Shown piece after piece: positions 5,147 through 55,256 of a stretch of 64,000 nucleotides of DNA (positions are counted from its first letter, which is position 1; each line of letters begins with the position of its first letter). A model generated the notes under the pieces. The model ran no database searches and was not told where the DNA came from. It saw only the letters and a program-made list of their open reading frames with translations. The position numbers were made by a program, and so were the translations under genes. Source of the stretch: Centroscyllium fabricii (taxonomy: Eukaryota); NCBI GenBank assembly GCA_051313645.2, contig JBNRSN020000086.1:1922001-1986000 (forward strand). Reading direction: 5' to 3'.

Positions 5147-5425
5147 CAGGTTGTGCACCGTTAATCCAGCACCGTCGGGACCAGGCCGGTGCCGGACTAG
5201 TGAAAAATCCGAAAGACTGAAGGTTCGGCGCGCGCATGCGCAGACCATTCAAAATGGCCGCCGCACATGCGCAAACCATTCAAAATGGCCGCTACACATG
5301 AACAGACCATTCAAAATGGCCGCTGCACATGCGCAGACCAGTCGGGGAGAGGCTGCCAGACGAATTCGTGCCGGACCACTGAAGGTGCTGAATTATCGGG
5401 TGCCGGATTAACGGTGCACAGCCTG
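5147..5425. mobile_element. Tigger/pogo-like MITE
   Basis: TA TSD and about 25-bp TIR caggttgtgcaccgttaatcc. Internal gcgcatgcgc / caaaatggccg repeats. Confidence 0.85.
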
Positions 5426-5844
5426 TATTATGAAGAAGAGCAGGGGAGTTATGACTGGTGCCCTGGCCCTAAATCTGTCCCTCAATCAACATCACTAAAA
5501 ACAGATTATCTGCTCATTATCTCGTTGCTGTTTGTGGGATCCTGCTGTGCGCAAATTAGCTGCCGCGTCTTCCCTGCATTGCAACAGTGACCACACTTCA
5601 AAACGAACTTGATTCTAGTTGTTTCTTTCTGCTCTCTTCAGGCGTTAACGGACCTTCTGTGCCGTTCCAAAATATTCTACCGTTTATTTTGTAGTTGGGA
5701 ACTGATCTCTGCTCCCCGTGACAAGGTGCGTCGGCCTCTTATTGGACGAATCCAAGAGCGGAGCACGGAAGAGCCCGCAAGATTGAAACTCTCAGCCTCC
5801 CAAATAAGGAGAGGGGTGAGGGTCAGACAGGGAGTGAAATCATG

Positions 5845-5944
5845 GAATAAAATCAGAACATTATTGGGAACACTCAGCAGGTCAGGCAGCATCTGTGGAG
5901 AGAGAAACAGAGTTAATGTTTCAGGTCGGTGACCTTTCGTCAAT
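5845..5944 (-). mobile_element. Penelope-type terminus with degenerate hammerhead motif
   Basis: Reverse complement of the 2870-2965 module. The core reads TTGACGA...GAAACATT. Confidence 0.6.
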
Positions 5945-6373
5945 GGAATAATGGAGCCTGCATTGTAGCAGGTCCTTCAGCTAACCCATGTGGAAGAGCT
6001 AACCATTCATGAAAGCCTTCGATTTTTTTTAACAATCCTTTTTTTAAGACTGGGAGTAGTTCTGTTCTCTGTCGCTGTTTGATTAACATTAAAGCAGAGG
6101 ACTCGGTGCCGTATTTCCTGCCCCATTTGCCCCCCTGCCCCGCTAACATCCCTTCTCTAACACCAGCTTTAAAAAATATATATTAAGAAAGTGCTAGAAT
6201 AGAAAGGAATACATAAAAGAAAAACTGAAATCAAACATTGTAAGAAAGTTGTAAGTGAGGACCACCTAACTTGTTTCACTTTGTTTTATTCTCCCTCATT
6301 CTTACTTTTCTGTCAGTCTTGTTTATGTCTTCTCTCTCTTTCTCTACCTCTGTGCATCTCTATATTCTCTATA

Positions 6374-6820
6374 CAGGTCCGGCACCATTAATCCGGAAAC
6401 TTCAGTCGTCCGGAACGAATCCGGCCGACTGGTTTGCGCATGCGCAAAATGGCCACCGCGCTTGTCTGCGCATGCCCGGGCCTCTGCCTGACTGGTCTGC
6501 GCATGCGCAAAATGGCCACCGCGCTTGGCTGCGCATGCCCGGGCCTCTCCCCGACTGGTCAGTGCATGTGCAAAATATCCACCGCGCATGCCCGGGCCTC
6601 TCCCCGGCTGCCCGACTGGTCTGTGCATGTACAAAGTGGCCACTGCGCTTGGCTGCGCATGCCCGGGCCTCGCCCCGAACGATTGATGCTTCGGCGAGCG
6701 CATGTGCAGACCATTCAAAATGGCCGTCGGCGTGCACGGCAGCCATTTGGAATGGTCTGCGCATGCGCTCGCCGAAGCCTCAATCGTTCGGGTTTTTCCC
6801 TAGTCCGGCACCGGTGTCGG
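6374..6820. mobile_element. Tigger/pogo-like MITE with internal tandem repeats (right end truncated)
   Basis: Left TIR caggtccggcaccattaatccgg after TA. About 60-bp internal repeats containing TGCGCATGCGCAAAATGGCC. Confidence 0.75.
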
Positions 6821-25330: not shown

Positions 25331-25359
25331 GTCTATGAGCACCTTTCTTTCTGTATGTG

Positions 25360-25800
25360 TTTGTGTGTCTATTCTGACACAGATTGTCCATCTGCTCTGT
25401 GTGTGTGTGTCTATTCTGACACGGATTATCTGTCTGCTCTGTGTATGTGTCTATTCTGACATGGATTGTCTGCTCTGTGTGTGTGTCTATTCTGACACGG
25501 ATTGTCTGCTCTGTGTGTGTGTGTCTATTCTGACACGGATTGTCTGTCTGCTGTGTGTGTGTCTATTCTGACACAGATTGTCTGCTCTGTGTGTGTGTCT
25601 ATTCTGACACGGATTGTCTGTCTGCTCTGTGTGTGTGTGTGTGTGTCTATTCTGACACGGAGTGTCTGTCTGCTCTGTGTGTGTGTCTATTCTGACACGG
25701 AGTGTCTGTCTGCTCAGTGTGTGTGTCTATTCTGACACGGATTGTCTGTCTGCTCTGTGTGTGTGTGTGTCTATTCTGACACGGATTGTCTGTCTGCTCG
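25360..25800. repeat. Compound minisatellite: tctattctgacacggattgtctg(tctg)ctc + variable (TG)n
   Basis: About 11 tandem units of roughly 35-48 bp. Confidence 0.9.
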
Positions 25801-26683
25801 GTCGGTGTGTGTGTGTGCTGCTATCTCTTTCACAGATTGTGTGTGCCTGCTCTTGCACAGATTATAAATCTGCTCTTTGTGTGTGCCGACTCTCGTTTCA
25901 GACAATGTGTGTCTTCCCTCCGATTGTAAATCTGCTCCCTCTCACTCACTCGGTTTATCTCTTCCTGTGTGCGTTTCTCTCTCTCTCTCTCTCTTGTCAG
26001 TCTCTGTCTCCCTCTTCCTGGCCACAGAAGGGAGTAAAAAGATTGGAAGGAGCATAAATCAAAAACGAAATTAATGGCACCACCTTTCTTTATAAATTGC
26101 TTGTGAAATTATATTCCACTTCAAAAAGGTAGCTTGCTTTGGACTGAACATTTTTTTCCTCTTCTAGTTAGTCAAGACAATTTTGCTGTACTGATGGGAT
26201 ATATATAACAAACAGCGTTTGTTTAAAAGCTGTGATTTAAAATTTATGGCAGAAGATTGACAGCATGAATGAAGAGGCTTGCTCTGTCGCTTTGAAGAGG
26301 AATGGAGAATCACGAGCCTGTTCCTGCTCTTGGAATCGTTTCAGAACAGTCAGAGCTTTCACTTCCAGCCTTTTATCAGGAGTCTCAGGAAATATTTTAA
26401 AAGTTAATAAATAGTGGCCCTGCTCTGATGTGCACTGCGAGCGGTTGCTATGGAGCAGAGTGTTGGAGGAGCCGAGGGAGATGTGCGGGCAGCAGTGATG
26501 TGGCAGATAAAAAGATTTCCAAGTGTGAAACCGGTGTGTGCGCTCCGCGGGAAACCAGGCTACTGCTTCGTAAATGTTCTCTTTGCTTTTGTGAAACATC
26601 ATCATCTTTGAGAAACACGTTGCTTTTCGATTCTTGCCCCCTTGCTAATCTGCAGTGGCCCGGTTAACGTGCGGTATTTGCTG

Positions 26684-26709: not shown

Positions 26710-27920
26710 CTGTAACCTCCTCCAGCCCTACAACCCTTTGCGCTCCTCCAATTATGGCCTCGAACGCATCCCCGATTTTCATCGCCCCCCATTGGCGGCC
26801 ATGCTTTCAGCTGGCTAGGCCCTAATCTCTGGAATTTGCTCCCTAAAGCTCTTCACCTCTCTCTCCTCCTTTAAGTTTCTCCTTAAAACCAATCTCCTTG
26901 ACCAAGCTTTTGGCGCTTCACAAACATAGAAACATAGAAACATAGAAAATAGGTGCAGGAGTAGACCATTCGGTCCTTCGAGCCTGCACTGCCATTTAAT
27001 GCGTTCATGGCTGAACATAAGAACATAAGAAATAGGAGCAGGAGTAGGCCAATCGGCCCCCCGAGCCCGCTCCGCCACCCAATAAGATCATGGCTGATCC
27101 TACCCTAACCTTCATACCACTATCACCCTTCATCCCACCCAAAGAACCATGTGATCTCCTGGGAGAGGCGAAAAACCGGATAAAAACCCAGGTCCAATTT
27201 GGGGGAAAAAATCCGGGAAATTCCTCTCCGACCCCAATCTAGGCGATCGAAACTTGTCCAGGAGATCACTCAGGTCTTACTATACTAACAATAGCTCAGG
27301 TCCACTTCCCTGCCCGCTCCCCGTAACCCCTAATTCCCTTGTCTGCTAAAAAACAGTCTATTTCCGTTTTAAATTTATTTAATGTTCCCGCTTCCACAGC
27401 TCCCTGAGGCAGCGAATTCCATAGATTAACCAAGAGTGTTATTAAACAAAAAATTGACACTGAGCCACATAAAGAGAAATTAGGGCAGATGACCATAAGC
27501 TTAGTCAAAAAGGTAGGTTTTAAGGAGCGTCTTACAGGAGGAAAGAGAGGCGGAGAGGTTTCGGCAGGGAATTCCAAAGATTAGGGCCCAGGCAACAGAA
27601 GGCACAGCCACCAAAGGTTGAGCGATTACAGTCAGGGATGCTCGAGGGCAGAATTAGAGGAGCGCGGGGGGGGGGGGGGGGGGGGGGGGGGTCTTGTGGG
27701 GCTGAAGGAGATTACAGAGATAGGGAGGGGCGAGAGGCCATGGAGAGATTTGAAAACAAGGATGAGAAATTTGAAATCGAGACGTTGCTTAACCGGGAGC
27801 CAATGTAGGTCAGCGAGCTCGGGCGATGGGTGAACGGGACTTGGTGCGAGTTAGGACACGGGCAGCCGAGTTTTGGATGACCTCAAGTTTACGTAGGGTA
27901 GGGCGTGGGAGGCCAGCCAG
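26710..27920. mobile_element. Cluster of L2 (+, 26710-26915), CR1 3' ends (-, 26920-27430) and L2 (-, 27430-27920)
   Basis: Matches to the L2 and CR1 3' sequences seen elsewhere in the window. Confidence 0.75.
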
Positions 27921-30335: not shown

Positions 30336-31530
30336 CCCTCAGTACTGCCCCTCCGACAGTGCAGCACTCCCTCAGTACTGCCCCTCCGACAGTGCAGCAC
30401 TCCCTCAGTACTGCCCCTCCGACAGTGCAGCGCTCCTTCAGTACTGCCCCTGCAACAGTGCAGCGCTCCCTCAGTACTGCCCATCCAACAGTGCAGCACT
30501 CCCTCAGTACTGCCCCACCGACAGTGCAGCGCTCCTTCAGTACTGCCCCTGCAACAGTGCAGCGCTCCCTCAGTACTGCCCCTCCGACAGTGCAGTGCAC
30601 TCTCAGTACTGCCCCTCCGACAGCGCAGTGCACTCTCAGTACTGCCCCTCCGACAGTGCAGCACTCCCTCTGCGCTGCCCCACCGACAGCGCAGCGCTCC
30701 CTCAGTACTGCCCGTCCGACCGTGCAGCACTCCCTCATTGCTGCCCCTCCGACAGTGCAGCACTCCTTCAGTACTGCCCCACCGACAGTGCAGCGCTCCT
30801 TCAGTACTGCCCCTCCGACAGTGCAGCGCACCCTCAGTACCGCCCCTCCGACAGTGCAGTGCACTCTCAGTACTGCCCCTCCGACAGTGCAGCACTCCCT
30901 CATTGCTGCCCCTCCGACAGTGCAGCACTCCTTCAGTACTGCCCCTCCGACAGTGCAGCGCACCCTCAGTACCGCCCCTCCGACAGTGCAGCGCACTCTC
31001 AGTACTGCCCCTCCGACAGTGCAGCGCTCCTTCAGTACTGCCCCTCCGACAGTGCAGTGCACCCTCAGTACTGCCCCTCCGACAGTGCAGCGCACTCTCA
31101 GTACTGCCCCTCCGACAGTGCAGCGCTCCCTCAGTACTGCCCCTCCGACAGTGCAGCGCTCCCTCAGTACTGCCCCTCCGACAGTGCAGCACTCCCTCAG
31201 TACTGCCCCTCCGACAGTGCAGCACTCCCTCAGTACTGCCCCTCCGACAGTGCAGCACTCCCTCAGTACTGCCCCTCCGACAGTGCAGCACTCCCTCAGC
31301 ACTGCCCCTCCGACAGTGCAGCACTCCCTCAGTACTGCCCCTCCGACAGTGCAGCACTCCCTCAGTACTGCCCCTCCGACAGTGCAGCGCTCCCTCAGTA
31401 CTGCCCCTCCGACAGTGCAGCACTCCCTCAGTACTGCCCCTCCGACAATGCAGCACTCCCTCAGTACTGCCCCTCCGACAATGCAGCACTCCCTCAGCAC
31501 TGCCCCTCCGACAGTGCAGCGCTCCTTCAG
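30336..31530. repeat. 33-bp minisatellite (about 36 units) amplified from a DeuSINE segment
   Basis: Unit cagtactgcccctccgacagtgcagcactccct. It runs directly into a minus-strand DeuSINE tRNA head at 31530-31650. Confidence 0.95.
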
Positions 31531-31724
31531 TCCTGTACTGGGAGTGTCAGCCTAGAGTTTTGTGTTCAAGTCTCTGGAATGCGACTTGAACCCACAACCT
31601 TCTAACTCAGAGGCGGGGATGCTACCAACTGAGCCACCAGCTGACACACTATAGCGGAAAAGGACCTGAACATAGGTTTCACTATACTTATATTTCATTG
31701 TACACGGATTTCACTGTACATAAT

Positions 31725-38490: not shown

Positions 38491-38544
38491 TCTTTCTGAC
38501 TGGCTGCCAACTTAGATTCACAGCCAAGATTCGTACCAGCGCTT

Positions 38545-39172
38545 GGATGCCACGGTAAACCTCAATACTTGGTTGGCGAGGTACACCTTAATACTTGGTT
38601 GCCGAGATACACCTCAATGCTTGGTTGCCGAGGTACACCTCAATGCTTGGTTGCCAAGGTACACCTCAATGCTTGGTTGCCAAGGTACACCTCAATGCTT
38701 GGTTGCCGAGATACACTTCAATACTTGGTTGGCGAGGTACACCTCAATACTTGGTTGGCGAGGTACACCTCAATGCTTGGTTGCCGAGGTACACCTCAAT
38801 ATTTGGTTGGCGAGATACACCTCAATACTTGGTTGGCGTGATACACCTCAATGCTTGGTTGCCGAGGTACACCTCAATACTTGGTTGGCGAGATACACCT
38901 CAATATTTGGTTGCCGAGGTACACCTCAATACTTGGTTGGCAAGGTACACCTCAATACTTGGTTGCCGAGGTACACCTCAATACTTGGTTGCCGAGGTAC
39001 ACCTCAATACTTGGTTGGCGAGATACACCTCAATACTTGGTTGGCGAGGTACACCTCAATACTTGGTTGACGAGATACACCTCAAGACTTGGTTGGCGAG
39101 GTACACCTCAATATTTGGTTGCTGAGGTACACCTCAATACTTGGTTGGCAAGGTACACCTCAATACTTGGTT
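38545..39172. repeat. 26-bp minisatellite, left part (about 24 units)
   Basis: Unit gaggtacacctcaatacttggttgcc with variants. Confidence 0.95.
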
Positions 39173-39578
39173 AAACATAGAAACATAGAAACTAGGAGCA
39201 GGAGCAGGCCATTCGGCCCTTCAAGCCTGCTCCGCCATTCAATGAGTTCATGGCTGATCATCCAAACCCAGTATCCCGCCCCTGCCCTCTCCCCATATCC
39301 CTCGATCCCTATCGAGCCTGCATCAACACATATCCCACCTTATCCCCGTAACCCCACATATTCAATCCCCCTAACACTAAGGGTCAATTTATCCTGGCCA
39401 ATCAACCTAGCCCGCACATCTTTGGACTGTGGGAGGAAACCGGAGCACCCGGAGGAAACCCACGCAGACACGGGGAGAATGTGCAAACTCCACACAGATA
39501 GTACCCGAGGCTGGATTTGAACCCGGGACTCCAGTGCTGTGAGGCAACAATGCTAACCACTGTGCCACCGTGCCGCCC
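39173..39578 (-). mobile_element. HE1-like V-SINE, full length
   Basis: Complete head to (atgtttct)n tail. Not hypermutated. Confidence 0.9.
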
Positions 39579-41780
39579 TGCGTAGGCAATGGTATCATTA
39601 AAACAGATCCGGAAAGACCTCGCCCGCCCCAGGAGCTCCCTCCACCCAACAATCCGGCCCCCCTACGTCGGGCCCTCGGTCCGCCCGTACACTACGCCAA
39701 ATGGACTCCCAACCCCCCAGACAAAATTCAACCCCTACTGAACGCCAGAACATCTCCGCTGGGAACAGTGGCCGCCGCAGCCTTCAACCCCCTCAAAAAA
39801 CAGTCGGAGAAAGCGACTCCCCACCCCATCAACGAGGACCCCCCCCCCCGTAGTCGAATGCGACGCCCCGGAGGTGGCGATCCCGGCCACTGTAAACCAG
39901 CAAGGCCGTCCTGCAGCACCCATGTCCAGGACCCCACAAGGCGCCGAGATACACCACCCCCCGGCCGAGAAGAAAGCCACAGCCATCACAGAGGTGGCAC
40001 GGAAGTGGAACCACTTCCCAGCTCGCCGGCACCCCACACTAACCACGGACCAGCGTCCAGCCGCCCCCACGCTCGACAACCGAAAGTGAACCAAAATCAA
40101 GAACAACAAAACACAGCTTCGGAGGACGGAACTGGCCCCCCCCAGCTACACCACCCACCATCGACCTGGCAAGGAGAACGCGACCCGGATACCCCCACAC
40201 GAGCACTCCGCTCCGCTACGTCACCCTCCACTCCCACAGACATCCACGATGGACCGTGCCATCCCGGCGCGACTCGCATGCCACACTTCATGCGATCACG
40301 GAATCTCCCACTCTCCACCGGAGACACGAAGAAAATGTGCTCCGAGTGCCGAACCCGTGCAGAACCGAAACCCCAGCTCCCCTGCCCCCCAGATGGTGCG
40401 CTCACACACGCAACCCAACCGATGCAACGACCCAGCACCGACTCCAAGGGCCCACCGCCCTCCTCAACACGGAACACACGTCTGCTCACCATGATCGACG
40501 AACATCCACGATCTCCGTCCGCCCTCCCCCGCTCCAACACGCCGGCATCCACAGCAACCAACTGCCCCGAGCAAGCACTTTCTCTCTGTGGCATGGCGGC
40601 CCACACCCACCCAGATCGGGGCCCATCCCCCACGCCAAGCGAACTCAAGGACTACCCCTCAGAACGGGGAACCGCGACAAGCAAAACAACGCCACACCAT
40701 CCCATCGGAAACGGACAGGCAGAGAGACACAACAGCACCACCTGGAATTCCGTACGTCCTGCCCCAAGATCCCAGGGCCCACCAAACCAGCAATGGGAAG
40801 CAGTGCCCCCAGATGCACCGCACTCCCCACGGTCCCCTCCCTCCACAGCCACAAACACGACACCGCACGAACGGCTCCCCAGACTCCAGCGTCGCTCATC
40901 CCACGGGGCATCTCCTCCGCCACGGCTAACCACTCCCGGACCCGCACCGCTCCGAAGATACGCCCGGACATCCAAAGATGACCCCCTCGTGGACGAGATC
41001 GAACTAACCGATGTCAACCCCACCTATGCCCACATACGTTATCCCGACGGTCGAGAGTCTACCGTATCATTACGGGACCTGGCACCCTGCCCACCAGGAC
41101 CTAGAGGGACACCAAGTGTTAATATCCCACCAGGGGCCTCCAGGGACCCACCGGGCACCACCCTCCAGGACCGCGACCTGACACCAACCAACCCTGCGCC
41201 GGTAGAATCCCACACCCGAAGCCACGACCCGCCAAGCACCCCCCTCCAGGACACTGACCAGACCCCAACCGACTCCAAGCCCGCGGGGGCCCGCACACGG
41301 AGCCATGATCCTCCCGGTGCCCCACGCCAAAGCGCCAACTGGCCGCAGACCAGCTCTGCGCCTCCCCCCGACCAGGGACAGACCAGCCCTGCGCCAACCG
41401 GAGCTCGCACGCGGAGCCATGATCTCCCCGACCCCCCACAGGGCAATCCAGGCCACGCAGGTTCCGACCAGTGGCCAACAGCAGGCAAACTGTCCAGAGA
41501 CCCAGACACCGTCCAAATGGGCAGACCATCGACCCAGCAACGAGAACTCAAACGGGTGCGACGACTCCTTGTTCGGCCACTCCGGAATAAAAAGAAGATT
41601 CCCGCCTTCCAATTTTGTAGGAGGGAAGAATGTGGTGATACCGAACAAACATTCGGGGGAAGGCTGAATGGTGAACTCTGTACATGTCACTTCCTGTGCC
41701 CAGATAGCATAAATACTGGAACTGCTCAGTATGGGGTGGATGCTTCACCTGGAAGCATGGTAAAACCCACCTCTGCAAAT
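39579..41780 (+). pseudogene. Ty3/Gypsy pol fragment (RT end, RNase H, integrase) + PPT + start of 3' LTR; T->C hypermutated
   Basis: Restoring C->T recovers RRALGLF..YYAKWIPNF, ECDAS, EKKATAI, TDQ, IDFKGP, HSDRG and TPYHPIGNGQVER. NPTYAHIRYPDGRESTVSLRDLAP is intact. PPT aggagggaagaa is followed by TG at 41631. Confidence 0.9.
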
Positions 41781-42704
41781 TGTGACAATATAGTGGATTA
41801 CAACTTTACTTTAAAGTTATTGATGTATAAGACTCATCTATCACATCAATACCCATGCTGATGGAATAGATGGCATGTGAAATTGAGACGGCAGAAGCAT
41901 TCGGTCAATGGTGAGAGAGGTAATGAGGTCAGACTGGATGAAAATTTGTGTAAATAATTGCAGCATGGTGAATCTGTTGTGAAAATGCAGTGAGGAAGAG
42001 CTTGTGGCTGAGGGAAGATATCTCTAAGGTGGGAGCTTTTACTTTACATTTGAAGCTGTCAACTCAACAGCTGATTCAATGGTCACTGAACTCATGCCTC
42101 AGCTTGACAAACATGGTCCACGACAACCTGGACCCCATGGGTGAGCTGTCAAATGCAAAAGGTAAGCTGAAAATCATTTTTAAGTGGCTCTAAGCAAGCC
42201 ACTAATTATCTGAATTGGATCCCCTGCCACTGCGTGTCGGATCTACTCAGCGCTGACAGACCCGACATTGGGAAAGTCGTGTGGCGGTGGGTTCACAGCA
42301 GTGTCGCAACTCACTGCGGGAAAAAACACTTTCCCACCCGGCTCGCCACCGATCGCACCCGCTGACCCCCAGAAAATTCCGCCCTAAGTAATTACTCCCC
42401 AAGTCACAATGATTGATATGGCTATCTCAGAACACTACCTCGTCTCCCTTACTATTCACAGCTTCCTGGCTCCAACTCTGCTGACTTCACCCTCCCCCCT
42501 GGAAAATATTCCACACCTAGCCACTTCACCAATACAATCTGTATTCACCTCTCTTCACCCCTCCAGACATCGCTTGGCCGTTGACTAACTGAACAGCATC
42601 CTTTTTTGTCTTCAATACACTAATTCCTGCCAAGTCACTCACTATCTCTTAGCATCATTATTCACCATATTCCCTCCTTTGCACGACTGAGTTTGAGAGC
42701 CACA

Positions 42705-43183
42705 TTGGTTGGCGAGATACACCTCAATACTTGGTTGCCGAGGTACACCTCAATACTTGGTTGGCGAGGTACACCTCAATACTTGGTTGGCGAGATACAC
42801 CTCAATACTTGGTTGCCGAGGTACACCTCAATACTTGGTTGCCGAGGTACACCTCAATGCTTGGTTGGCGAGGTACACCTCAATACTTGGTTGCCGAGGT
42901 ACACTTCAATACTTGGTTGCCGAGGTGCACCTCAATACTTGGGTGCCGAGGTACACCTCAATACTTGGTTGGCGAGGTACACCTCAATGCTTGGTTGGCG
43001 AGGTACACCTCAATACTTGGTTGGCGAGATACACCTCAATACTTGGGTGCCGAGGTACACCTCAATACTTGGGTGCCGAGGTACACCTCAATACTTGGGT
43101 GACGAGGTACACCTCAATACTTGGTTGCCGAGGTACACCTCAATACTTGGTTGGCGAGGTACACCTCAATGCTTGGTTGCCGA
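42705..43183. repeat. 26-bp minisatellite, right part (about 18 units)
   Basis: Same unit and orientation as 38545-39172. Confidence 0.95.
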
Positions 43184-43387
43184 GAAAGGCACTATTTCTT
43201 GGCTGTCAAGGTTCGGACTTGCCGGGAGGGGGGTGCAAGATGATGGCTATGATTAGCTGTGAGTGTGTGACGGAGAGAAACATAATAAACCTGAGTGATG
43301 TTCTGTGAAATACGAGGCTCCATCACCTGAGTGCCATTGGAGGCTAAGTATGATTTTAACCCAAGAGCGCATAATGCGTTTGTATGA

Positions 43388-44999: not shown

Positions 45000-47250
45000 C
45001 ATTAAAATATCATGAACAGGTACAGAAAATAATCAAAAGGGCTAATGGAATGCTGGCCTTTATATCTAGAGGACTCGAATACAACAACAAAAGCTTATAT
45101 TTATACAGTGACTTTAATGTAGTAAAACATCCCGAAGTGCTTCACAGGCGTATTATAAGACAAAAAATTGACACCGAGGCACATAAGAAATTAGGGCAGA
45201 TGAGGAGGTAGGTTTTAAGGCGCATCGTAAAGGAGAAATGAGAGGCAGAGAGGTTTAGGGGGGAAATTCCAGAGCTCGGGGCCCAGGCAGCTGAAGGCAC
45301 GGGCACCAACGATTGAGTGATTATAATCAGGGATGCTCAAGCGGGCAGAATTAGAGGAGCGCAGATATCTCGGGGGAGTGTGGGGGGTGCTCGTTGTGGG
45401 GCTGAAGGAGATCACAGAGATAGGGAGGGGTGAGGCCGTGGAGGGATTTACAAGCAAGGATGAGAATTTTGAAATCGAGGCGTTGCTTAACCGGGAGCCA
45501 ATGTAGGTCAGCGAGCACAGGGGAAATGGGTGAACGGGACTTGGTGCGAGTTAGGACAAGGGCAGCCGAGTTTTGGACGACCTCAAATTTACGTAGGGTG
45601 GAATGTGGGAGGCCAGCCAGGAGTGCATTGGAATAGTCGAGTCTCGAGGTAACAAAGGCACGGATGAGGGTTTCAGCAGCGGATGAGCAGAGGCAAAGGC
45701 AGAGACGGGCGATGTTACGGAGGTGGAAATAGGCGGTCTTAGTTATGCCACGGATATGTGGTCGGAAGCTCATTTCAGGGTCAAATATGACACCAAGGCT
45801 GCGAACAGTCTGGTACAAGGGGGTAGAAGTTATGCTCCAGCTATACAAAGCCCTGGTTAGACCACACCTGGAGTACAATGAGCAGTTCAGGGCACCACAC
45901 CTCAGCAAGGATATATTGGCCTTGGAGGGAGTGCAGTGTAGGTTTACCAGAATGATACCCGGACTCCAGGGGCTAATTTATGAGGAGAGATTACACAAAC
46001 TGGGGTTGTATTGCCCAGAATTTAGAAGGTTAAGGGGTAATTTGATTGACGTTTTCAAGATATTAAGGGATACAGGTTGTGCACCGTTAATCCGGCACCT
46101 GATAATTCAGCACCTTCAGTGGTCCGGCACGAATCTTGCTGGCCGGCCCACGTGATCCCAGGGACGCTCGAGATGCGCGGGCCTCTCTCCGGCAGCACCC
46201 CGCGATGCGCGGGCCTCTCCCCGGCAGCACCCCGCGATGCGCGGGCCTCTCTCCGGCAGCACCGGAGAGTCCCAGGACCGCAAATCCCATTCCCTCACTC
46301 TTTAACTGGTCTGCGCATGCACAGTGGCCATTTTGACTGGTCTGCGCATGCGCAGCAGCCATTTTGACAGGTCTGCACATGCGCAGTGGCCATTTTGACT
46401 GGTCTGCGCATGCGCAGTGGCCATTTTGACTGGTCTGCGCATGCGCAGTGGCCATTTTGACTGGTCTGCACATGCGCAGTGGCCATTTTGACAGGTCTGC
46501 ACATGCGCAGTGGCCATTTTGACTGGTCTGCGCATGCGCAGCAGCCATTTTGACTGGTCTGCACATGCGCAGTGGCCATTTTGACAGGTCTGCACATGCG
46601 CAGTGGCCATTTTGACTGGTCTGCGCATGCGCAGTGGCCATTTTGACTGGTCTGCGCATGCACAGTAGCCATTTTGACTGGTCTGCACATGCGCAGTGGC
46701 CATTTTGACTGGTCTGCGCATGCGCAGCAGCCATTTTGCCAGGTCTGCGCATGCGCAGCAGCCATTTTGACTGGTCTGCACATGTGCAGCGGCCATATTG
46801 ACTGGTCTGCGCATGCGTAGCGGCCATATTGACTGGTTTGCACATGCGCAGCGGCCATATTGACTGGTCTGCGCATGCGCTCCCCGAACCTTCAGTGGTT
46901 CGGCATTTTCAGTAGTCCGGCACCGGCCTGGTCCTGAGGGTGCCGGATTAACGGTGCACAACCTGTATTAACCGCTGGTTACTGAGTCTAGGACTACGGG
47001 GCATAGTCTAAAAATTAGAGGCAGGCCTTTCAGGTGTGAAATTAAGAAACATTTCTACACACTAAGGGTGATAGAAGTTTGGAACTCTTTTCTGCAAACG
47101 GCAATTGATAGATCAATTGTTAATTTAAAATCTGAGACTGCTAGAATTTTGTTAAGGGATATGGGACAAAGGCGGGTATATGGAGTTCGGTCGCAGATCA
47201 GCCCTGATCTCAGTGAATGGCGGAACAGGCTCGAGGGGCTGAATGGCCTA
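45000..47250 (+). mobile_element. Older CR1 3' fragment interrupted by L2 (-, 45081-45810) and a MITE
   Basis: ANGMLAFISRGLEY|KGVEVMLQLYKALVRPHLEY. The L2 carries AFVTSRLDYSNALL...LHWLPV. Confidence 0.85.
46073..46965. mobile_element. Tigger/pogo-like MITE with about 18-19 x 31-bp internal array (46303-46880)
   Basis: TA TSD and perfect TIR. Unit gactggtctgcgcatgcgcagtggccatttt. Confidence 0.92.
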
Positions 47251-49661
47251 CACTCTGTGTTCTTTTAAGCACCGGTATGTCCTTGCAGAACAAAAGGCTG
47301 TCGACGCAGCACACCCAAGCTCACCCCGAGCTCTCTCCCCAACACACGACCTCACCACGACCTCTCTCACCAACACACCTGAGCTCAGTTGGTAGCACTC
47401 TCGCCTCGGAGTCAGAAGGTTGTGGGTTGAAGTCCCACTCCAGAGACTTGAGCACAAAATCTAGGCTGACACTTCAGTGGGCTGGAGCGTTTCAGCTATG
47501 AAGAGAGACTGGACAGGCTGGGGTTGTTTTCCTTGGAGCAGAGAAGGCTGAGGGGGGACCTGATTGAGGTGTACAAAATTATGAGGGACATAGATAGGGT
47601 AGATAGAAAGGAACTTTTCCCTTAGTAGAGGGCTCAATAACCAGGGGGCATAGCTTCAAGGTAAGGGGCAGGAGGTTTAGAGGGGATTTGAGGAAGAACT
47701 TTTTCACCCAGAGGCTGGTTGGAATCTGGAACTCACTGCCTGAAAGGGTGGTAGAGGCAGGAACCCTCACAACATTCAAGAAGCATTTAGATGAGCACTT
47801 GAAATGCCATAGCATACAAGGTTACGGAGCAATCGCTGGAAAATGGGATTAGAATAGACAGGGCTTGATGGCCGGCGCCGACACGATGGGCCGAAGGGCC
47901 TCTTTCTGTGCTGGATAACTCTGTGACTCTGCAGTACTGAGGGGTGTGCCGTCTTTCGGATCTGAGGCACCATCTGCTCTCTCAGGTGGACATAAAAGAT
48001 CCCATGGCATTTTTTCGAGGAAGAGCTTGGGTAGTTATCCCCGGTGTTCTAGCCAATATTTATCCCTCAATCAACATCGCTAAAACAAATTATCTGGTCA
48101 TTATGACATTGCTGTTTGGGGGAGCTTGCTGTGCGTAAATTGGCTGCCGCGTTTCCTACATTACAGCAGTGACTACACTTCAAAAAAAGTACTTAATTGG
48201 CTGTAAAGTGCTTTGGGACGTCCAGTGGACGTGAAAGGCGTTATAGAACATAGAACATACAGCACTGTACAGGCCCTTGGGCCCTCAATGTCGTGCCGCG
48301 CTTAGTCCGTCTCTGATTTTTCCTGTCCCCCCCTACTCTTCCTTCCCCTCCATGTACCTATATATCATCCTTTTAAAAGCACCCAGACTGTCCACATCTA
48401 CTATTTCAGATGGTAGCCTATTCCACTCCCCGACCACTCTCTGTGTAAAGAACTTGCCCCTGCCATCCCTTCTGAATCTTCCTCCTTGAATCTTGTGCTC
48501 GTGCCCTCTTGTTGTCGTTCTTCCCACCCGGGGAAACAGTCTCTGCACGTTTACTCTATCGATCCCCTTCATCATCTTAAACATCTCTATTAAGTCCCCC
48601 CTCTTCCTTCTCCGCTCCAGGGAGAAGAGACCCAGCTCCCTCAACCTCTCCTCATACGACTTTCCCACCATTCCCGGCAGCATCCTGGTGAATCTCCTCT
48701 GAACCCTCTCCAACGCCTCCACATCCCTCCTGTAGTACGGTGCCCAGAACTGCACACAGTACTCCAAGTGTGGTCTCACCAGTGACCTGTACAGCTGTAG
48801 CATGACCTCCTTAAACTCTATTCCCCTGTTGATGAAGGCCAATACACCATAGGCCTTTTTTACTGCCTTATCCACCTGGGTTGCAGCCTTCAATGATCTG
48901 TGTACATATACTCCCAGATCCCTTTGCTCCTCTGCTTCGCTCAGGACCCTGCCGTTGACCCTATATTCCCTATTACTATTTGCCCTACCGAAGTGTATCA
49001 CCTCGCATTTCCCCGTGTTGAACTCCATTTGCCATTCTTCAGCCCAGCTCTGCATCCTATCTATATCCCTCTGAATCCTTCTACTTCCTTCCTCCTCATC
49101 CACTACTCCCCCAATCTTTGTGTCATCTGCAAATTTGCTGACCCACCCCTCAGTCCCCTCCTCCAAGTCATTGATTGTTGAGGCCTGCAAGGCTGAAGGA
49201 CCACGCTGGACACAGAGAGGTTGAATGCAGAGTTTTTATTAACTACTTGTTACAGCTAGGGCCAGGTAGGGAGAAAGAGAGAGAGCCACCTGGCTCTCAG
49301 ATATTTAAAGGTCCCGCGGCTGGGGACGTCACTGCCGGCTGGCCTCCTGGTGACGTCATCACGTCGGGGAAGTCCGTGCGTCCTCCGACGGGCGGGGCCG
49401 CTTTGCAGCCTTCCCAGCGCGGGTTCGTGGCTGCCGGTGGGCGTGTCGCCACACAGCTCCCCCCCAGAATCCGCGAGGGGAAGTGTAGTTTCCTAGAGGA
49501 GAGGGAGACAAAAAGGAGAGCAGACACACATTTCGATTACACACAGAATGTCCGACAGTTTGCCGCAATGGCCTGGTGTTGTGGCCGGCAGGTGTTGTGT
49601 GCTGTTCCGTGGTTCGAAAGATGGTGTTGTGGCGGGCCGTCTATGCTCTGCCCGTGTCGCC

Positions 49662-52600
49662 TCAGGCGAGGCGCTTGGGTGGCCTGATGGTACGGCCGGC
49701 ACGTGTGATGTGTTGCTTGTTGGTCTGTGTGGGAGTGTGGGCGGGTTTTGGTGCGGTAGGGCGGCCGCGTTTAGGTGGTTGTGCGGGGACTGTTGTCTCG
49801 CCCGCCATTACGTGTGCTGGTTTGAGCCGGTCAATGGATACGGTCTCAGTTCTGTTGCCCATTTGAATGTCAAAAGTCTTGGGTCCCGCCCGAAGCACTC
49901 TAAATGGCCCGTCGTACGGTGCCTGCAGCGGTGCTTTGTGAGAGTCATGGCGGACAAACACGTACTTGGCGTCCTGAATGGTGTTGGGGACGCGTGTCGC
50001 CGGTTGACCGTGGCGGGCCACCGGAAGTGGTTTGAATTCTGCTGCCTGGTTGTTGAATTCCCTGAGGCAGCGCTCGGCCGACCAGGGTTCGTTTGTTTCT
50101 GCGACGAACTCGCCTGGTACGGTTAGTGGTTGGCCGTAAACGAGTTCGGCTGCCGAGGCGTGTAGATCTTCTTTGGCCGCTGTGCGGAGGCCGAGCATTA
50201 CCCAGGGCAGGCGGTCCGTCCAGGTTGCGTCCTGGAGGCTGGCCCGCAGGGATGTTTTAAAAGTTCGGTGGAACCGTTCGCAGAGGCCGTTGGCTTGCGG
50301 GTGGTAGGCAGTGGTTCGGTGCAGGGTTACCCCAAGGTCGTGAGCGATGGTTGACCATAGAGTTGAAGTGAATTGGGGGCCCCTGTCTGAAGTAATGTCG
50401 TTGGGGACGCCGAAGCGGGCGACCCAGGTGGCGATGAAGGCCCTGGCCAGTTCGGCGGTGGTGGTCGTGTTGAGGGGGACCGCTTCAGGCCAGCGGGTGG
50501 TGCGGTCGACCATTGTGAGGAGGTACAAGTGTCCACGTGATGGGGGTAGTGGTCCAACCAGGTCGATGTGCACGTGGCTGAAGCGTCTGGCTGGGATGGC
50601 GATTGGTTGGAGCGGTGCTTTGATGTGTTTGTGCACCTTGGCTCGCTGGCAGGCATTGCACGAGGTGGTCCAGGCGCGGACATCTTGTTTTAGGCCGCGC
50701 CAAACGAATCGCGCAGAGATGAGCTTGGTGGATGCGCGGACGCCGGGGTGGGAGAGGCCGTGGAGGGTCTGGAAGATGTGCTGCCTCCACGCGAGGGGCA
50801 CCACGGGCCTGGGTTGGGGCAGGGTGACGTCGCAGCGGACCGCCGTGGCTGTGGGTCCGTGTGCTACGGTGGCCAAGAGTAGGCCGGGAAGTTTGTTGGT
50901 GGGGTCGAGGAGGTCGGGATCGCTGAGTTGGTCGGCCGCCATTTTGACGTAGTCGACCGCGGTCTGGACAGTGTTGGTGGTTGGGAATGCGCAGCAGTGT
51001 GCGCAGGCGCGGTTGGTGGCTGGGGTTGGGGGGTGGTCGGCGGTTTGGGTGCCGGTTGTGCCTGCGCTGCTGATGGCGGGGCCCGCGGGGTGGTCGGGGT
51101 TGGGCTTGTGAATGGCGGGTCGTGAGAGGCAGTCGGCGACCACGTTGTCGCGGCCGGCAATGTGCTGGATGTCGGTCGTGAACTCGGACACGGCCGCGAG
51201 CTGGCGCTGCTGCCTGGCCGACCAGGGTTCGGAGAGCTTAGCCATTGCGGAGACTAATGGTTTGTGGTCCACAAATGCTGTAAAGTGGCGGCCCTCTAAA
51301 AGGAAGCGGAAGTGGCGCACTGCGAGGTAGAGAGCGAGTAGCTCCCTATCGAAGGCACTGTACTTGACCTCTGGGGGCCGGAGGCGGCGGCTGAAAAAGG
51401 CCAGTGGTTGCCATGAGTCGCCCGACCACTGCTCGAAGACTGCTCCGACAGCGTGGTCGGAGGCGTCGGTGGTGAGGGCTACTCTGGCGTTGGGCCTGGG
51501 GTGGCTGAGGAGGGTGGCTTTGGCAAGGGCCGTTTTGGTTGCGGTGAAAGCGGTGGCGGCTTCGGCCGTCCACTCGACCGCGGTCTTGTTGGATTGCCCG
51601 TGGGTGGCCTGGTAGAGGGGGGCCATGAGGGCGGCTGCGCCGGGGATGAAACGGTTGTAAAAATTAACCATTCCAAGGAATTCCTGCAGCCCCTTGATGG
51701 AGTGCGGGCGGGGGAATTCCTGGACCGCCTGCACCTTGGAGGGCAGGGGTATGGCCCCGGTGTGGGAGATGTGGTGGCCGAGGAAGTCAATAGCCTCGAG
51801 GCCGAATCGGCATTTGGAGGGGCTTAATATGAGGCCGTGGTCGGCCAGGCGTTTAAAAAGGGTTCTGAGGTGGATGAGGTGTTCCCGGGGGGAGGCGCTG
51901 GCCACCAGGATGTCGTCGAGATAGACGAATGTGAACTGGAGGTCCCGGAGGACTGAGTCCATGAGGCGCTGGAAAGCCTGGGCCGCGTTTTTGAGTCCGA
52001 AGGGCATCCGGAGAAATTCAAATAGGCCGAATGGGGTGATGACGGCTGTCTTAGGGACATCCGCCGGGTGCACTGGAACTTGGTGGTAGCCCCGTACCAG
52101 GTCGATCTTTGAAAAGACCGTGCAGCCGGCTAGCCTCACGGAAAAATCCTGGATGTGGGGGACTGGGTACCTATCCGGGGTGGTGGCGTTGTTGAGGCGG
52201 CGGTAGTCTCCGCAGGGGCGCCAGCCGCCATCGGGTTTAGGGGCAATGTGGAGGGGGGGAGGCCCAGGGGCTGCTGGAGCGGCGGATGATGCCGAGCTGT
52301 TCCATGATGTGAAACTCGGCTCGAGCGATCTCTAGCTTGGCCGGGTCCAGCCTGCGTGCGTGGGCGTGGACCGGGGGGCCTGTGGTGGTGATGTGGTGCT
52401 CTACGCCGTGCTTGGCGGAGCGGGCTGTGAAGGTGGGGTTGGTTAGGGTGGGGAACTCGGCGAGCAGCGTGGCGTACGTGTCGGAGTTGCGGGCCCGGCA
52501 GTGAGCTGCCGCGTGGGTCTGGTGTGCTGGGGCTGTGGAGCCCGGAATGGTCGACATGATTTGGATGTCGACCAGGCGGCGCCGGGTAACATCGACAAGG

Positions 52601-52985
52601 AGCCCGTGGGCGCACAGAAAGTCGGCTCCGAGTAGGGGCGTGTTAACCTGCGCGGTGATGAAGTCCCACGTATACCTGTGGCCTGCTAGTTTAATGGTAA
52701 GCTGGCGGGTACCGAACGTGAGTATCTCGGAGACGTTTGCGGCTTCGAGTGGTGGGCCTTGGGTGCCCTGCTTGGATTCTGCGGGGGAGGCTGGCACGAT
52801 GCTGTGCTGCGCGCCTGTGTCGCAGAGGAAACGGAGGCCTGAGACACTGTCTGTAACGAAGAGCAGCGCTCCGGAGCGGCCGACGCACATGGTGGGGCTG
52901 GGGCAGGTTTGGGGTTTGAAGTTGCAGGGCGGAACGCAGCGCTGCGCTTTGGCCTCAAACCTGGTATGGTAGTAGCACCAGCCGG
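49662..52985 (-). CDS. pol: Gypsy NC-protease-RT-RNase H-integrase polyprotein (one frameshift in a C-run at about 52255)
   Basis: LCDTGA, YLDD, TDAS, HHCC zinc finger, HIDLVGP, SDRG, ERF, GPF. Confidence 0.92.
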
Positions 52986-53506
52986 TTGCCGCGGTGCGTG
53001 GCTTTAATGAGCTTGTCTGCCTCCTGAGCTAGCTGCCTGTTTGAGAGGTGCTCCAAGACCGTCAGTGTCGGTCTGATGGAGGGCGGCAGCTTAAGGAGGT
53101 AGAGGGCGCGCTTAAGGGTGTCTGAGTCGCGATTAAGCGCCTCGAACTGGGCCCACAAGTCGGTGGGGTCTGCATCTCCCAGGTCGGGGAGGTTAATGAC
53201 CTGGCAATCGCGCTCGAAAATGGTTGGGGTAAATTTTGCGAGCAGCGCGGCCTTTAGCGATTCGTACCTGCCAGCAGAAGTGTCTTCCTCGATGGTGTCC
53301 CACATTCTGTCGATGGTGGACTGTGCGAGGGCTGCGAAGAGCAGGCTGTAGCGGTCGTCTGCGTGCACGCCATGAATGCGGAAGGTGTTCTCGGTGTTGC
53401 GAAACCAAGCCGCTGGACGGAGCTCCCAGAATTGTGGTATGGTTGGGACCGGGAGGTAAACTTGGCCCCGTCTGCCTTGGCGTGCTGAGTCGGTTGCTGC
53501 TGGCAT
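52955..53506 (-). CDS. gag: Gypsy gag capsid region
   Basis: IPQFWELRPAAWFRNTE...YESLKAALL...LGDADPTDL, typical of CsRn1-type gag. Confidence 0.85.
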   Translation of the reverse strand: MPAATDSARQGRRGQVYLPVPTIPQFWELRPAAWFRNTENTFRIHGVHADDRYSLLFAALAQSTIDRMWDTIEEDTSAGRYESLKAALLAKFTPTIFERDCQVINLPDLGDADPTDLWAQFEALNRDSDTLKRALYLLKLPPSIRPTLTVLEHLSNRQLAQEADKLIKATHRGNRLVLLPYQV

Positions 53507-55256
53507 GGTGGTATCGATTCGGCTGCGGCAGCTTGTCCCTCAGTCCTGCAGTGGCTGCTTCATTGTTCACCTGAGAAACGTCTCAGGTATCGGGGTCACC
53601 AGTGTTGAGGCCTGCAAGGCTGAAGGACCACGCTGGACACAGAGAGGTTGAATGCAGAGTTTTTATTAACTACTTGTTACAGCTAGGGCCAGGTAGGGAG
53701 AAAGAGAGAGAGCCACCTGGCTCTCAGATATTTAAAGGTCCCGCGGCTGGGGACGTCACTGCCGGCTGGCCTCCTGGTGACGTCATCACGTCGGGGAAGT
53801 CCGTGCGTCCTCCGACGGGCGGGGCCGCTTTGCAGCCTTCCCAGCGCGGGTTCGTGGCTGCCGGTGGGCGTGTCGCCACATGATAAAGATTATAAATAGT
53901 AGTGGCCCCAACACCGACCCCTGTGGCACCCCACTGGTGACCGGTCTCCAACCCGAGTATTGGCCCTCTACCACTACCCTCTGCTTTCTCTGAGCCAGCC
54001 AGTTCTCAATCCATCCCACTACTTCGTTGTTTACCCCGCAACTCCTTACTTTCTTCATGAGTCGACCGTGCGGGACCTTGTCGAACGCCTTGCTGAAGTC
54101 CATATATATGACATCAACCGCCTTTCCCTCGTCCACACACTTGGTCACCTCTTCAAAGAATTCTATCAGGTTGGTCAGGCACGATTTGCCCTTAACGAAT
54201 CCGTGCTGACTGCTCCTGATTAATTTGCCCCTTTCTAGATGGTCGTAGATCCTGTCCCTCAGGACCCTATCCATCACCTTTCCGACCACCGAGGTAAGGC
54301 TGACTGGTCTGTAGTTCCCTGCCACGTCCCTGCTCCCCTTTTTAAATATGGGAACCACATTCGCCTCTCTCCAGTCCTCAGGGACTATCCCCGAGGATAG
54401 CGAGGAACTAAAGACAGTTATATGAATGCAAGTCTTTATTTCTTTCTCTCCCCGAGTTCTCTCTCTACCCCAACACACCTGAGCCTGGCCTCACTCTCCA
54501 GATCACGATCTGGATCCCAAGTCCAACTCCAGCCTTTCTGCACTCCGACAATCTCGAGCCAATCATCCTTGAGCCAGCAGAAGAAGATGTTTGCAATTAG
54601 TGTATTGTGCCAATCATCCAGATACCATCAATAATGCATCAGTGTGGTCTAATTATTAGCATAACACAGTGCGTTGGCACCCAGTGCTGGCAATTATAGC
54701 CCCTCGTTGGCTGCTAGATATTTGCTGATTACTACATTTTAAGCGGCGCCAGTTAATCGTGTTTTATGACCAGTCTATTACCGAGCTAACAAAGGTTACT
54801 TTTATTTATTTCCCCCAGCCCCACCACCCCTCTTGCTTCCCTCTTAATGAAACTCTCCTAAAATTGCATGAAAAGCATTTTGGGGAAAGTGCACTCGGCT
54901 GCTGCCCTCCGGCTACAGATTAGCGCACAGTCTGAACCCATGAATCTTTCATGTGCTCACTGCTGCGTGTGATGGTACTCCCGATGCGAAGCAGCCACAC
55001 AGAGCTGACGGGAACAGGTGACTTGAAGTTCATGTTTTATTCAGTTCAAGCTGGTATTTTTGATTTTTTTTTTTTGCGGGGCGCAGGTAGGACTAATTCA
55101 GGTCAGGGCGCCCACTTCCGACATCCTTCGCTCGCGGGCCTTTTGGTGAATGATGCAGCCATGATACCGAGTCAGCAAGGAGAGGTGAACTGGCTCTGAT
55201 GGTGCGAATTGGAGTCACGTTCAACTTGTTGTTTCATGACATAGAGCTACACAGTA

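Follow-up and report, generated by a model that had tools for sequence, protein, structure and literature searches.

A 3.5-kb insertion in the 64,000-nucleotide stretch of Centroscyllium fabricii DNA analysed here (the window) is likely to be a retrocopy of a single RNA molecule that was hyper-edited by ADAR within a hairpin formed in cis. Editing of RNA by ADAR followed by retroposition, with all variants of this reading taken together, is very likely, and RNA edits probably became heritable in this way. An earlier note, made from the sequence alone, had described 39579..41630 as a Gypsy fragment whose antisense strand was hyper-edited from A to G. The feature is real; however, the changes were found to extend from 39619 to 41889, reaching into the LTR, and the unit to be considered is the insertion at 39173-42704 (Table 1).

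The plus strand was T-poor and C-rich, as the note had stated, with 206 T and 824 C in the 1951 bases of 39610-41560. The window mean is about 26% T, and the lowest-T 500-base windows of the whole 64 kb fall in this stretch. The reported loss of TT and TA, and the survival of TC and TG, were also borne out (TA, 0.49; TT, 0.55; TC and TG, 1.28 of expectation). A similarity search of the 7.2-Gb assembly scored 40 matches of 5401 candidates, and 29 of the 39 non-self matches listed were fetched as family copies. These copies differed from the window by 263 to 280 T>C changes versus 0 to 13 C>T changes, and since all 29 showed this excess, the window carries the changed copy. An intrinsically C-rich composition, considered in view of another C-rich LTR element in the window, was ruled out, as all 29 family copies carry T.

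The comparison of the window with its donor (locus L002) over 3533 alignment columns gave 275 T>C, 0 C>T, and 22 other substitutions, the latter consisting of 6 A>G, 5 G>A, and 11 transversions (297 substitutions in total); two one-base indels were also present. The strand asymmetry between 275 T>C and 6 A>G was extreme (binomial p 3e-73), and this one-directional, one-strand spectrum agrees with A-to-G hyper-editing of the antisense strand. The signature of APOBEC was absent, with sense-strand G>A accounting for 5 of the 297 substitutions. The SINE was untouched, as the note had observed. In segment order after the SINE, the changed donor Ts were 0/8 in the first 40 Gypsy bases, 225/377 in the core, and, after the gap listed in Table 1, 33/61 and 6/33 before the LTR. 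All codon positions were affected (23/48, 37/58, and 35/53). In the integrase frame, each of the 60 amino acid changes over 246 codons was of the T>C kind, as the note had proposed, and the donor's reading matches exactly the expected motifs in the note's three examples. The RNase H and integrase identities were recovered by Pfam (PF17917, E 4e-9; a weak PF00665 integrase core, E 5e-4), and the donor's equivalent integrase stretch gave E 1e-17.

TABLE 1 The insertion, its parts, and its satellite target (positions in the window)
Feature	Position	Strand	Remarks
Whole insertion	39173..42704	-	Copy of L002:1095-4626 (G000:C1044, ~226.18 Mb); putative retrocopy of a minus-strand transcript
Left part of 26-bp satellite array (target)	38542..39172	.	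24.3 copies, 90% matches
Target-site duplication, left copy TTGGTT	39167..39172	+	Hexamer in satellite unit phase
SINE ending in (TTCTATG)-type repeat tail; putative priming site; unedited	39173..39578	-	0/75 T changed
Gypsy pol fragment with RNase H and integrase, plus downstream internal sequence; minus strand hyper-edited	39579..41630	+	C in the window at 266/495 donor Ts; Pfam
Nearly unedited gap within the edited stretch	41010..41115	+	2/20 T changed
3' LTR of the Gypsy element, lightly edited	41631..41850	+	8/70 T changed
Non-Gypsy flank from the donor; probable 5' part of the transcript	41851..42704	-	1/11, then 0/210 T changed
Target-site duplication, right copy TTGGTT	42705..42710	+	
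Right part of 26-bp satellite array	42705..43184	.	18.5 copies, 93% matches

The donor was identified from sequence on both sides of the Gypsy fragment, since the alignment extends past the Gypsy sequence at both ends (39173-42704). The window and L002 had in common 18 of 20 donor-rare non-T letters, and the distal flank at 41880-42704 was 99% identical to L002 alone and at most 88% identical elsewhere among the 40 scored matches. No second copy of the same donor was found among these matches. The donor itself is unedited and, apart from the T>C changes, differs from the window by 0.6%, thereby indicating that the copy is young. The donor Gypsy element (L002:1-1094; G000:C1044:226174103-226182253) is interrupted by the SINE and other repeat sequence; its LTRs are 95% alike, and a same-orientation LTR copy lies 7.9 kb upstream. 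The copied flank at 41880-42400 includes an abundant repeat, 83 to 88% alike at 38 other listed places, which is unedited.

The ends of the insertion fit a LINE-mobilized RNA. Its minus-strand end lies inside the short repeat tail of the SINE, and it is on this strand that the changes appear as A>G. The last 80 to 150 SINE bases matched CR1-type LINEs at their 3' ends, immediately downstream of ORF2 hits, at many fetched loci; the tail may be like that of the HE1/HER1 pair of sharks and rays. The hexamer TTGGTT occurs once per satellite unit, yet it stands on either side of the insertion in unit phase, and we therefore take it as a 6-bp target-site duplication. The end opposite the SINE carries 854 bases of donor flank, and the single LTR is internal. 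At the donor, which is without the target flanks, Gypsy reverse transcriptase sequence lies on one side and other sequence on the other, and the window's insertion flank is single-copy in the assembly. Two terminal LTRs with a duplication directly outside, the hallmark of Gypsy replication, were absent. The flanks of one donor, the SINE tail, and the 6-bp duplication thus upheld the view that this was not a normal Gypsy replication product. The copy and donor were colinear with no intron loss, which is not required for an unspliced transcript. From the SINE-tail end, the tail in common with LINEs, the 6-bp duplication, and the agreement on the minus strand, we infer that a minus-strand RNA carrying 3.1 kb upstream of the SINE was copied by target-primed reverse transcription. 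SINE and LINE tails in common mark recognition by the LINE enzyme (PMC3747384, PMC4176376).

The neighbours of the changed sites were those expected of an adenosine deaminase. For minus-strand adenosines, the changed fraction by 5' neighbour was 0.71 for U (72/102), 0.72 for A (87/121), 0.48 for C (58/120), and 0.32 for G (49/152) (chi-square p 2e-12). The bias expected from the ADAR order U>A>C>G was therefore present, although U and A were equal rather than ranked. G is the least preferred base upstream of ADAR sites (PMC3091650, PMC3197674). By 3' neighbour, the fractions were 0.58 for G, 0.60 for A, 0.50 for U, and 0.43 for C (p 0.08), with G not clearly first. Adenosine-deaminase-domain exons, which may be of the ADAR, ADAD, or ADAT type, were found at 5 genome loci.

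The donor locus also holds a candidate pairing partner. In the 60 kb examined around the donor, an inverted Gypsy element of a sister subfamily, 79% identical, lies 14 to 16 kb from the donor's edited stretch. The donor and sister elements are head to head, with 2.8 kb between the sister and the donor 5' LTR, and the alignment of their arms spans about 4 kb, in four blocks. Sister sequence matches the donor to either side of the SINE but not the SINE itself, and the edits were confined to where the sister aligns, with one nearly unedited gap at 41010-41115 inside. None of 10 other Gypsy copies had a full inverted relative within 20 kb; one had a 434-base, 65% match. Editing fell from 260/458 to 14/103 where sister identity drops to 0.68-0.74, whereas own-subfamily identity stays at 0.94-0.95 there. 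No promoter or host exon was found in the 60 kb around the donor, and 5 of 114 non-repeat frames in the donor region matched Pfam, all with transposon domains.

The partner was further indicated by mismatches in the predicted duplex. Adenosines facing C in the sister were changed at 65/89 sites and those facing U at 181/363 when all sites were counted. After the removal of 33 of the 495 sites, where more than 10% of own-subfamily copies carry C, the values were 49/69 and 174/354. In a model that included both neighbours, the odds ratio for A:C was 2.4 (1.3 to 4.3; p 0.003), and with codon position it was 2.5. Sites facing sister A (10/21) or G (8/18) behaved like A:U pairs. The same pattern is described for human Alu elements, in which A:C mismatches are preferred ADAR targets and A:A and A:G behave like A:U (PMC3091650). 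Gene conversion from the sister subfamily was rejected, because the window had the sister letter at only 2 of 296 non-T differences.

Under the preferred reading, a minus-strand transcript would have run antisense through the donor Gypsy element and on into the inverted sister element, and its two arms would have paired in a hairpin of several kb from which the SINE looped out. ADAR would have deaminated about half of the donor-arm adenosines. The SINE tail would then have been recognised by a CR1-type LINE reverse transcriptase, which would have started synthesis within the satellite and reverse-transcribed 3.5 kb, with each inosine written as G. Such copying would be a 5' transduction, a process best known for SVA. 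The event would have taken place in the germline or early embryo, and the copy would have gained its own variants since. Because the sister arm is located 3' of the SINE tail, priming would have been internal, or the RNA would have been cut after editing.

Several details of the duplex were less regular. Per-site editing was weakly correlated with duplex energy (rho 0.10, p 0.016), and editing per 100 nt showed no significant correlation with duplex energy (rho -0.23, p 0.30, n 23). The duplex predicted for the gap at 41010-41115 ranks second in strength, and sister identity there is 0.83, yet the gap is nearly free of edits. Local self-folding did not explain this gap. Conversion from another copy was also considered for it and was not supported; there was one informative site, at which a donor-rare T was kept in the window. 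An inverted, 92% identical copy of part of the SINE lies at G000:C1044:226205576-226205868, 22 kb away on the donor's upstream side. Given the unedited SINE, the transcript may have begun nearer than this inverted copy, or other SINE copies may have paired with the inverted one.

The closest alternative, which we consider unlikely, retains the ADAR-edited retrocopy and places the duplex in trans: a donor antisense transcript ending at the SINE tail would have annealed to sister-subfamily sense RNA from elsewhere. Internal priming would then no longer be needed, and the sister subfamily is both young (96 to 98% alike) and numerous. The A:C effect was the same for all 29 sister-subfamily copies, and only 4 sites were private to the neighbouring sister; thus cis is not separable from trans by these sites. 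Own-subfamily copies showed the same A:C trend, with odds ratios of 1.3 to 3.8 on 17 to 29 sites. Against pairing in trans, own-subfamily RNA (93 to 96% identical) would pair better; the LTR should then have been fully edited and the A:C effect should not have been specific to the sister, and neither expectation holds. Moreover, a full inverted relative stands near the donor and near none of the 10 other copies. A hairpin in cis is therefore preferred.

Deamination of DNA was weighed separately. In this account, an unedited retrocopy was inserted first, and ADAR later acted on its minus DNA strand while that strand was paired with Gypsy sense RNA in an R-loop. Deamination of dA by ADARs in DNA/RNA hybrids, best at dA-C mismatches, has been described (PMC5389660), and an R-loop would likewise place the changes on the minus strand and within the Gypsy part only. 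However, the skew was seen in none of the other 57 Gypsy copies and in no other repeat in the 455 kb and 400 kb of fetched DNA, and an inverted partner is found at the donor of the one copy that is edited. RNA of 95% identity would also be favoured over RNA of 79% identity in an R-loop, and deoxyinosine in DNA is normally repaired. These points make R-loop editing very unlikely. The earlier note had left editing between RNA and an RNA:DNA hybrid; RNA is now favoured and the hybrid disfavoured.

A DNA-level mutator, whether TpA-directed hypermutation, an error-prone polymerase, or GC-biased conversion, would fit the depletion of TA and the gain of GC in the copy. It is highly improbable, because only one strand was affected, TT was changed as often as TA, TG and TC were also changed, transversions stayed at background, and the SINE and flank were spared. 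Editing of minus-strand cDNA in an RNA:DNA hybrid during Gypsy's own reverse transcription would give sense-strand T>C, and whether ADAR edits retroviral cDNA in such hybrids is called unknown in PMC12925331; with the LTR in the middle, the SINE and the donor flank at opposite ends, the duplication outside them all, and an unedited donor, this route is scarcely credible.

The altered letters were also sought in sequencing data, namely four runs from two samples of one study; a further run (X5, share 0.07) was left out. The two samples presumably represent two individuals, one of which may be the source of the assembly. The four runs contained 42 to 46% of the sampled words of 39600-41500. In each of the four runs, one contig of 881 to 882 bases covered 39579-40431 (853 bases) with the edited letters and 0 to 2 other letters. 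The donor's letter was found in some runs at 39737 and 40056, with a difference at 39737 even between the two runs of one sample; these letters are interpreted as variants that the copy acquired once it had been inserted. The contig depth was 5.6 to 15.6, against about 10.5 to 21 on the flank shared with the donor, which fits, and does not measure, one copy versus two. The right junction was represented by 60-base records in two of the four runs, with 30 letters a side, below the 31-letter bridging rule. The bins 40435-40541 and 40863-40969 had zero cover in the four runs, where records are filtered, so that such holes prove nothing. No long piece was listed for the second half of the edited stretch, whose letters come from the assembly alone.

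An assembly or sequencing artefact, such as edited cDNA built into the contig, would be compatible with the two empty bins and with the lack of a listed piece that bridges a junction by this rule; its probability is negligible in view of the edited-letter contigs in all four runs, which show sample-specific variants between them, the records over the right junction, and the target-site duplication in satellite phase. The earlier note had also called the change fixed in the germline genome. The observation is the presence of 39579-40431 in two samples of one study, and "fixed" goes beyond it. A balanced spectrum, missing neighbour bias, and unsupportive reads had been named beforehand as contrary outcomes, and none of the three was found. 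The one-strand spectrum, the 5' neighbour bias, and the sequencing support over 853 bases thus support the earlier interpretation.

Other repeats were observed in the window. A different C-rich LTR retroelement lies at 49176-53880 (minus strand), inserted in a CR1-type LINE; with 0 LTR differences over the 277 bases compared and a 4-bp flanking duplication, it is very recent. The LINE/SINE tail is tandemly duplicated at 26922-27097 with an 83-base period. Minisatellite arrays with periods of 31 to 33, 40, and 63 bases occur at 30336-31535, 46301-46880, 25358-25839, and 5231-6675.

The insertion was compared with known systems. A-to-G hypermutated retroviral sequences, in which RNA edits were written into DNA by reverse transcriptase, were reportedly described by Hajjar and Linial in 1995, Felder et al. 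in 1994, and Kim et al. in 1996. Those three papers are said to concern infecting viruses that used their own enzyme in cultured or somatic cells; here, a host transcript and a LINE enzyme were involved, and the result is apparently inherited. Hyper-editing of inverted repeats in RNA and genome-fixed APOBEC G>A editing are already established. In human ultra-edited RNAs (PMC3197674) and Alu elements (PMC3091650), ADAR hyper-editing resembles the insertion in its dense A>G on the transcribed strand, its confinement to repeats, a nearby inverted relative, the depletion of upstream G, and the favouring of A:C. Those edits exist in RNA only, whereas here genomic DNA carries them, at 275 sites over 2.3 kb and with a 79% partner. 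APOBEC-edited LTR retroelements (PMC4866542, PMC2873906) are likewise hypermutated copies with an identifiable source and one-directional, strand-biased changes. In contrast, APOBEC makes sense-strand G>A changes on cDNA during the element's own replication, whereas the changes here are T>C on the Gypsy sense strand of a SINE-tailed retrocopy; other mismatch types were very rare in the vertebrate APOBEC screen (PMC4866542). Stringent SINE/LINE pairs with a common 3' tail (PMC3747384, PMC4176376) are like the insertion in a SINE tail matching LINE ends, an end within the tail repeat, and a short duplication. They differ in that the SINE here carries 3.1 kb of upstream read-through RNA, and tail recognition would have occurred within a longer RNA. 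In the literature searched, mostly without subscription papers, no case was found of a host transcript that had been hyper-edited by ADAR and retroposed into a genome, and for which both donor and partner were known; the supplements of PMC4866542 may list non-G>A clusters.

No further hyper-edited segments were found in 7569 alignments over 455 kb, nor in 7323 alignments over 400 kb more (about 293 kb covered), which amounts to about 0.01% of the genome. The insertion is an unusually complete case of RNA edits entering genomic DNA, as a single assembly contains the edited copy, the unedited donor, the likely partner, and the mark of the copying enzyme. The preferences of a germline deaminase for neighbours and mismatches are preserved on one 2.3-kb molecule, and the case implies that Gypsy elements give rise to long antisense hairpin RNAs in the germline. 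A search for donor-copy pairs with one-strand A>G changes would indicate how often editing becomes heritable. Hyper-editing takes a copy to about 83% family identity in one step, so that such copies would be misdated or missed by repeat annotation. We tentatively propose, as an idea that is plausible and still rather doubtful, that SINE tails allow long hairpin transcripts hyper-edited by ADAR to be captured by CR1-type LINEs in the germline. Large repeat-rich vertebrate genomes would then carry unmined single-molecule RNA-editing fossils, with donor and partner readable, and editing would repeatedly give rise to clustered A>G mutations that are inherited. It may even be their richness in inosine that allows such transcripts to be copied, through opening of the duplex or cleavage of the RNA close to the SINE.
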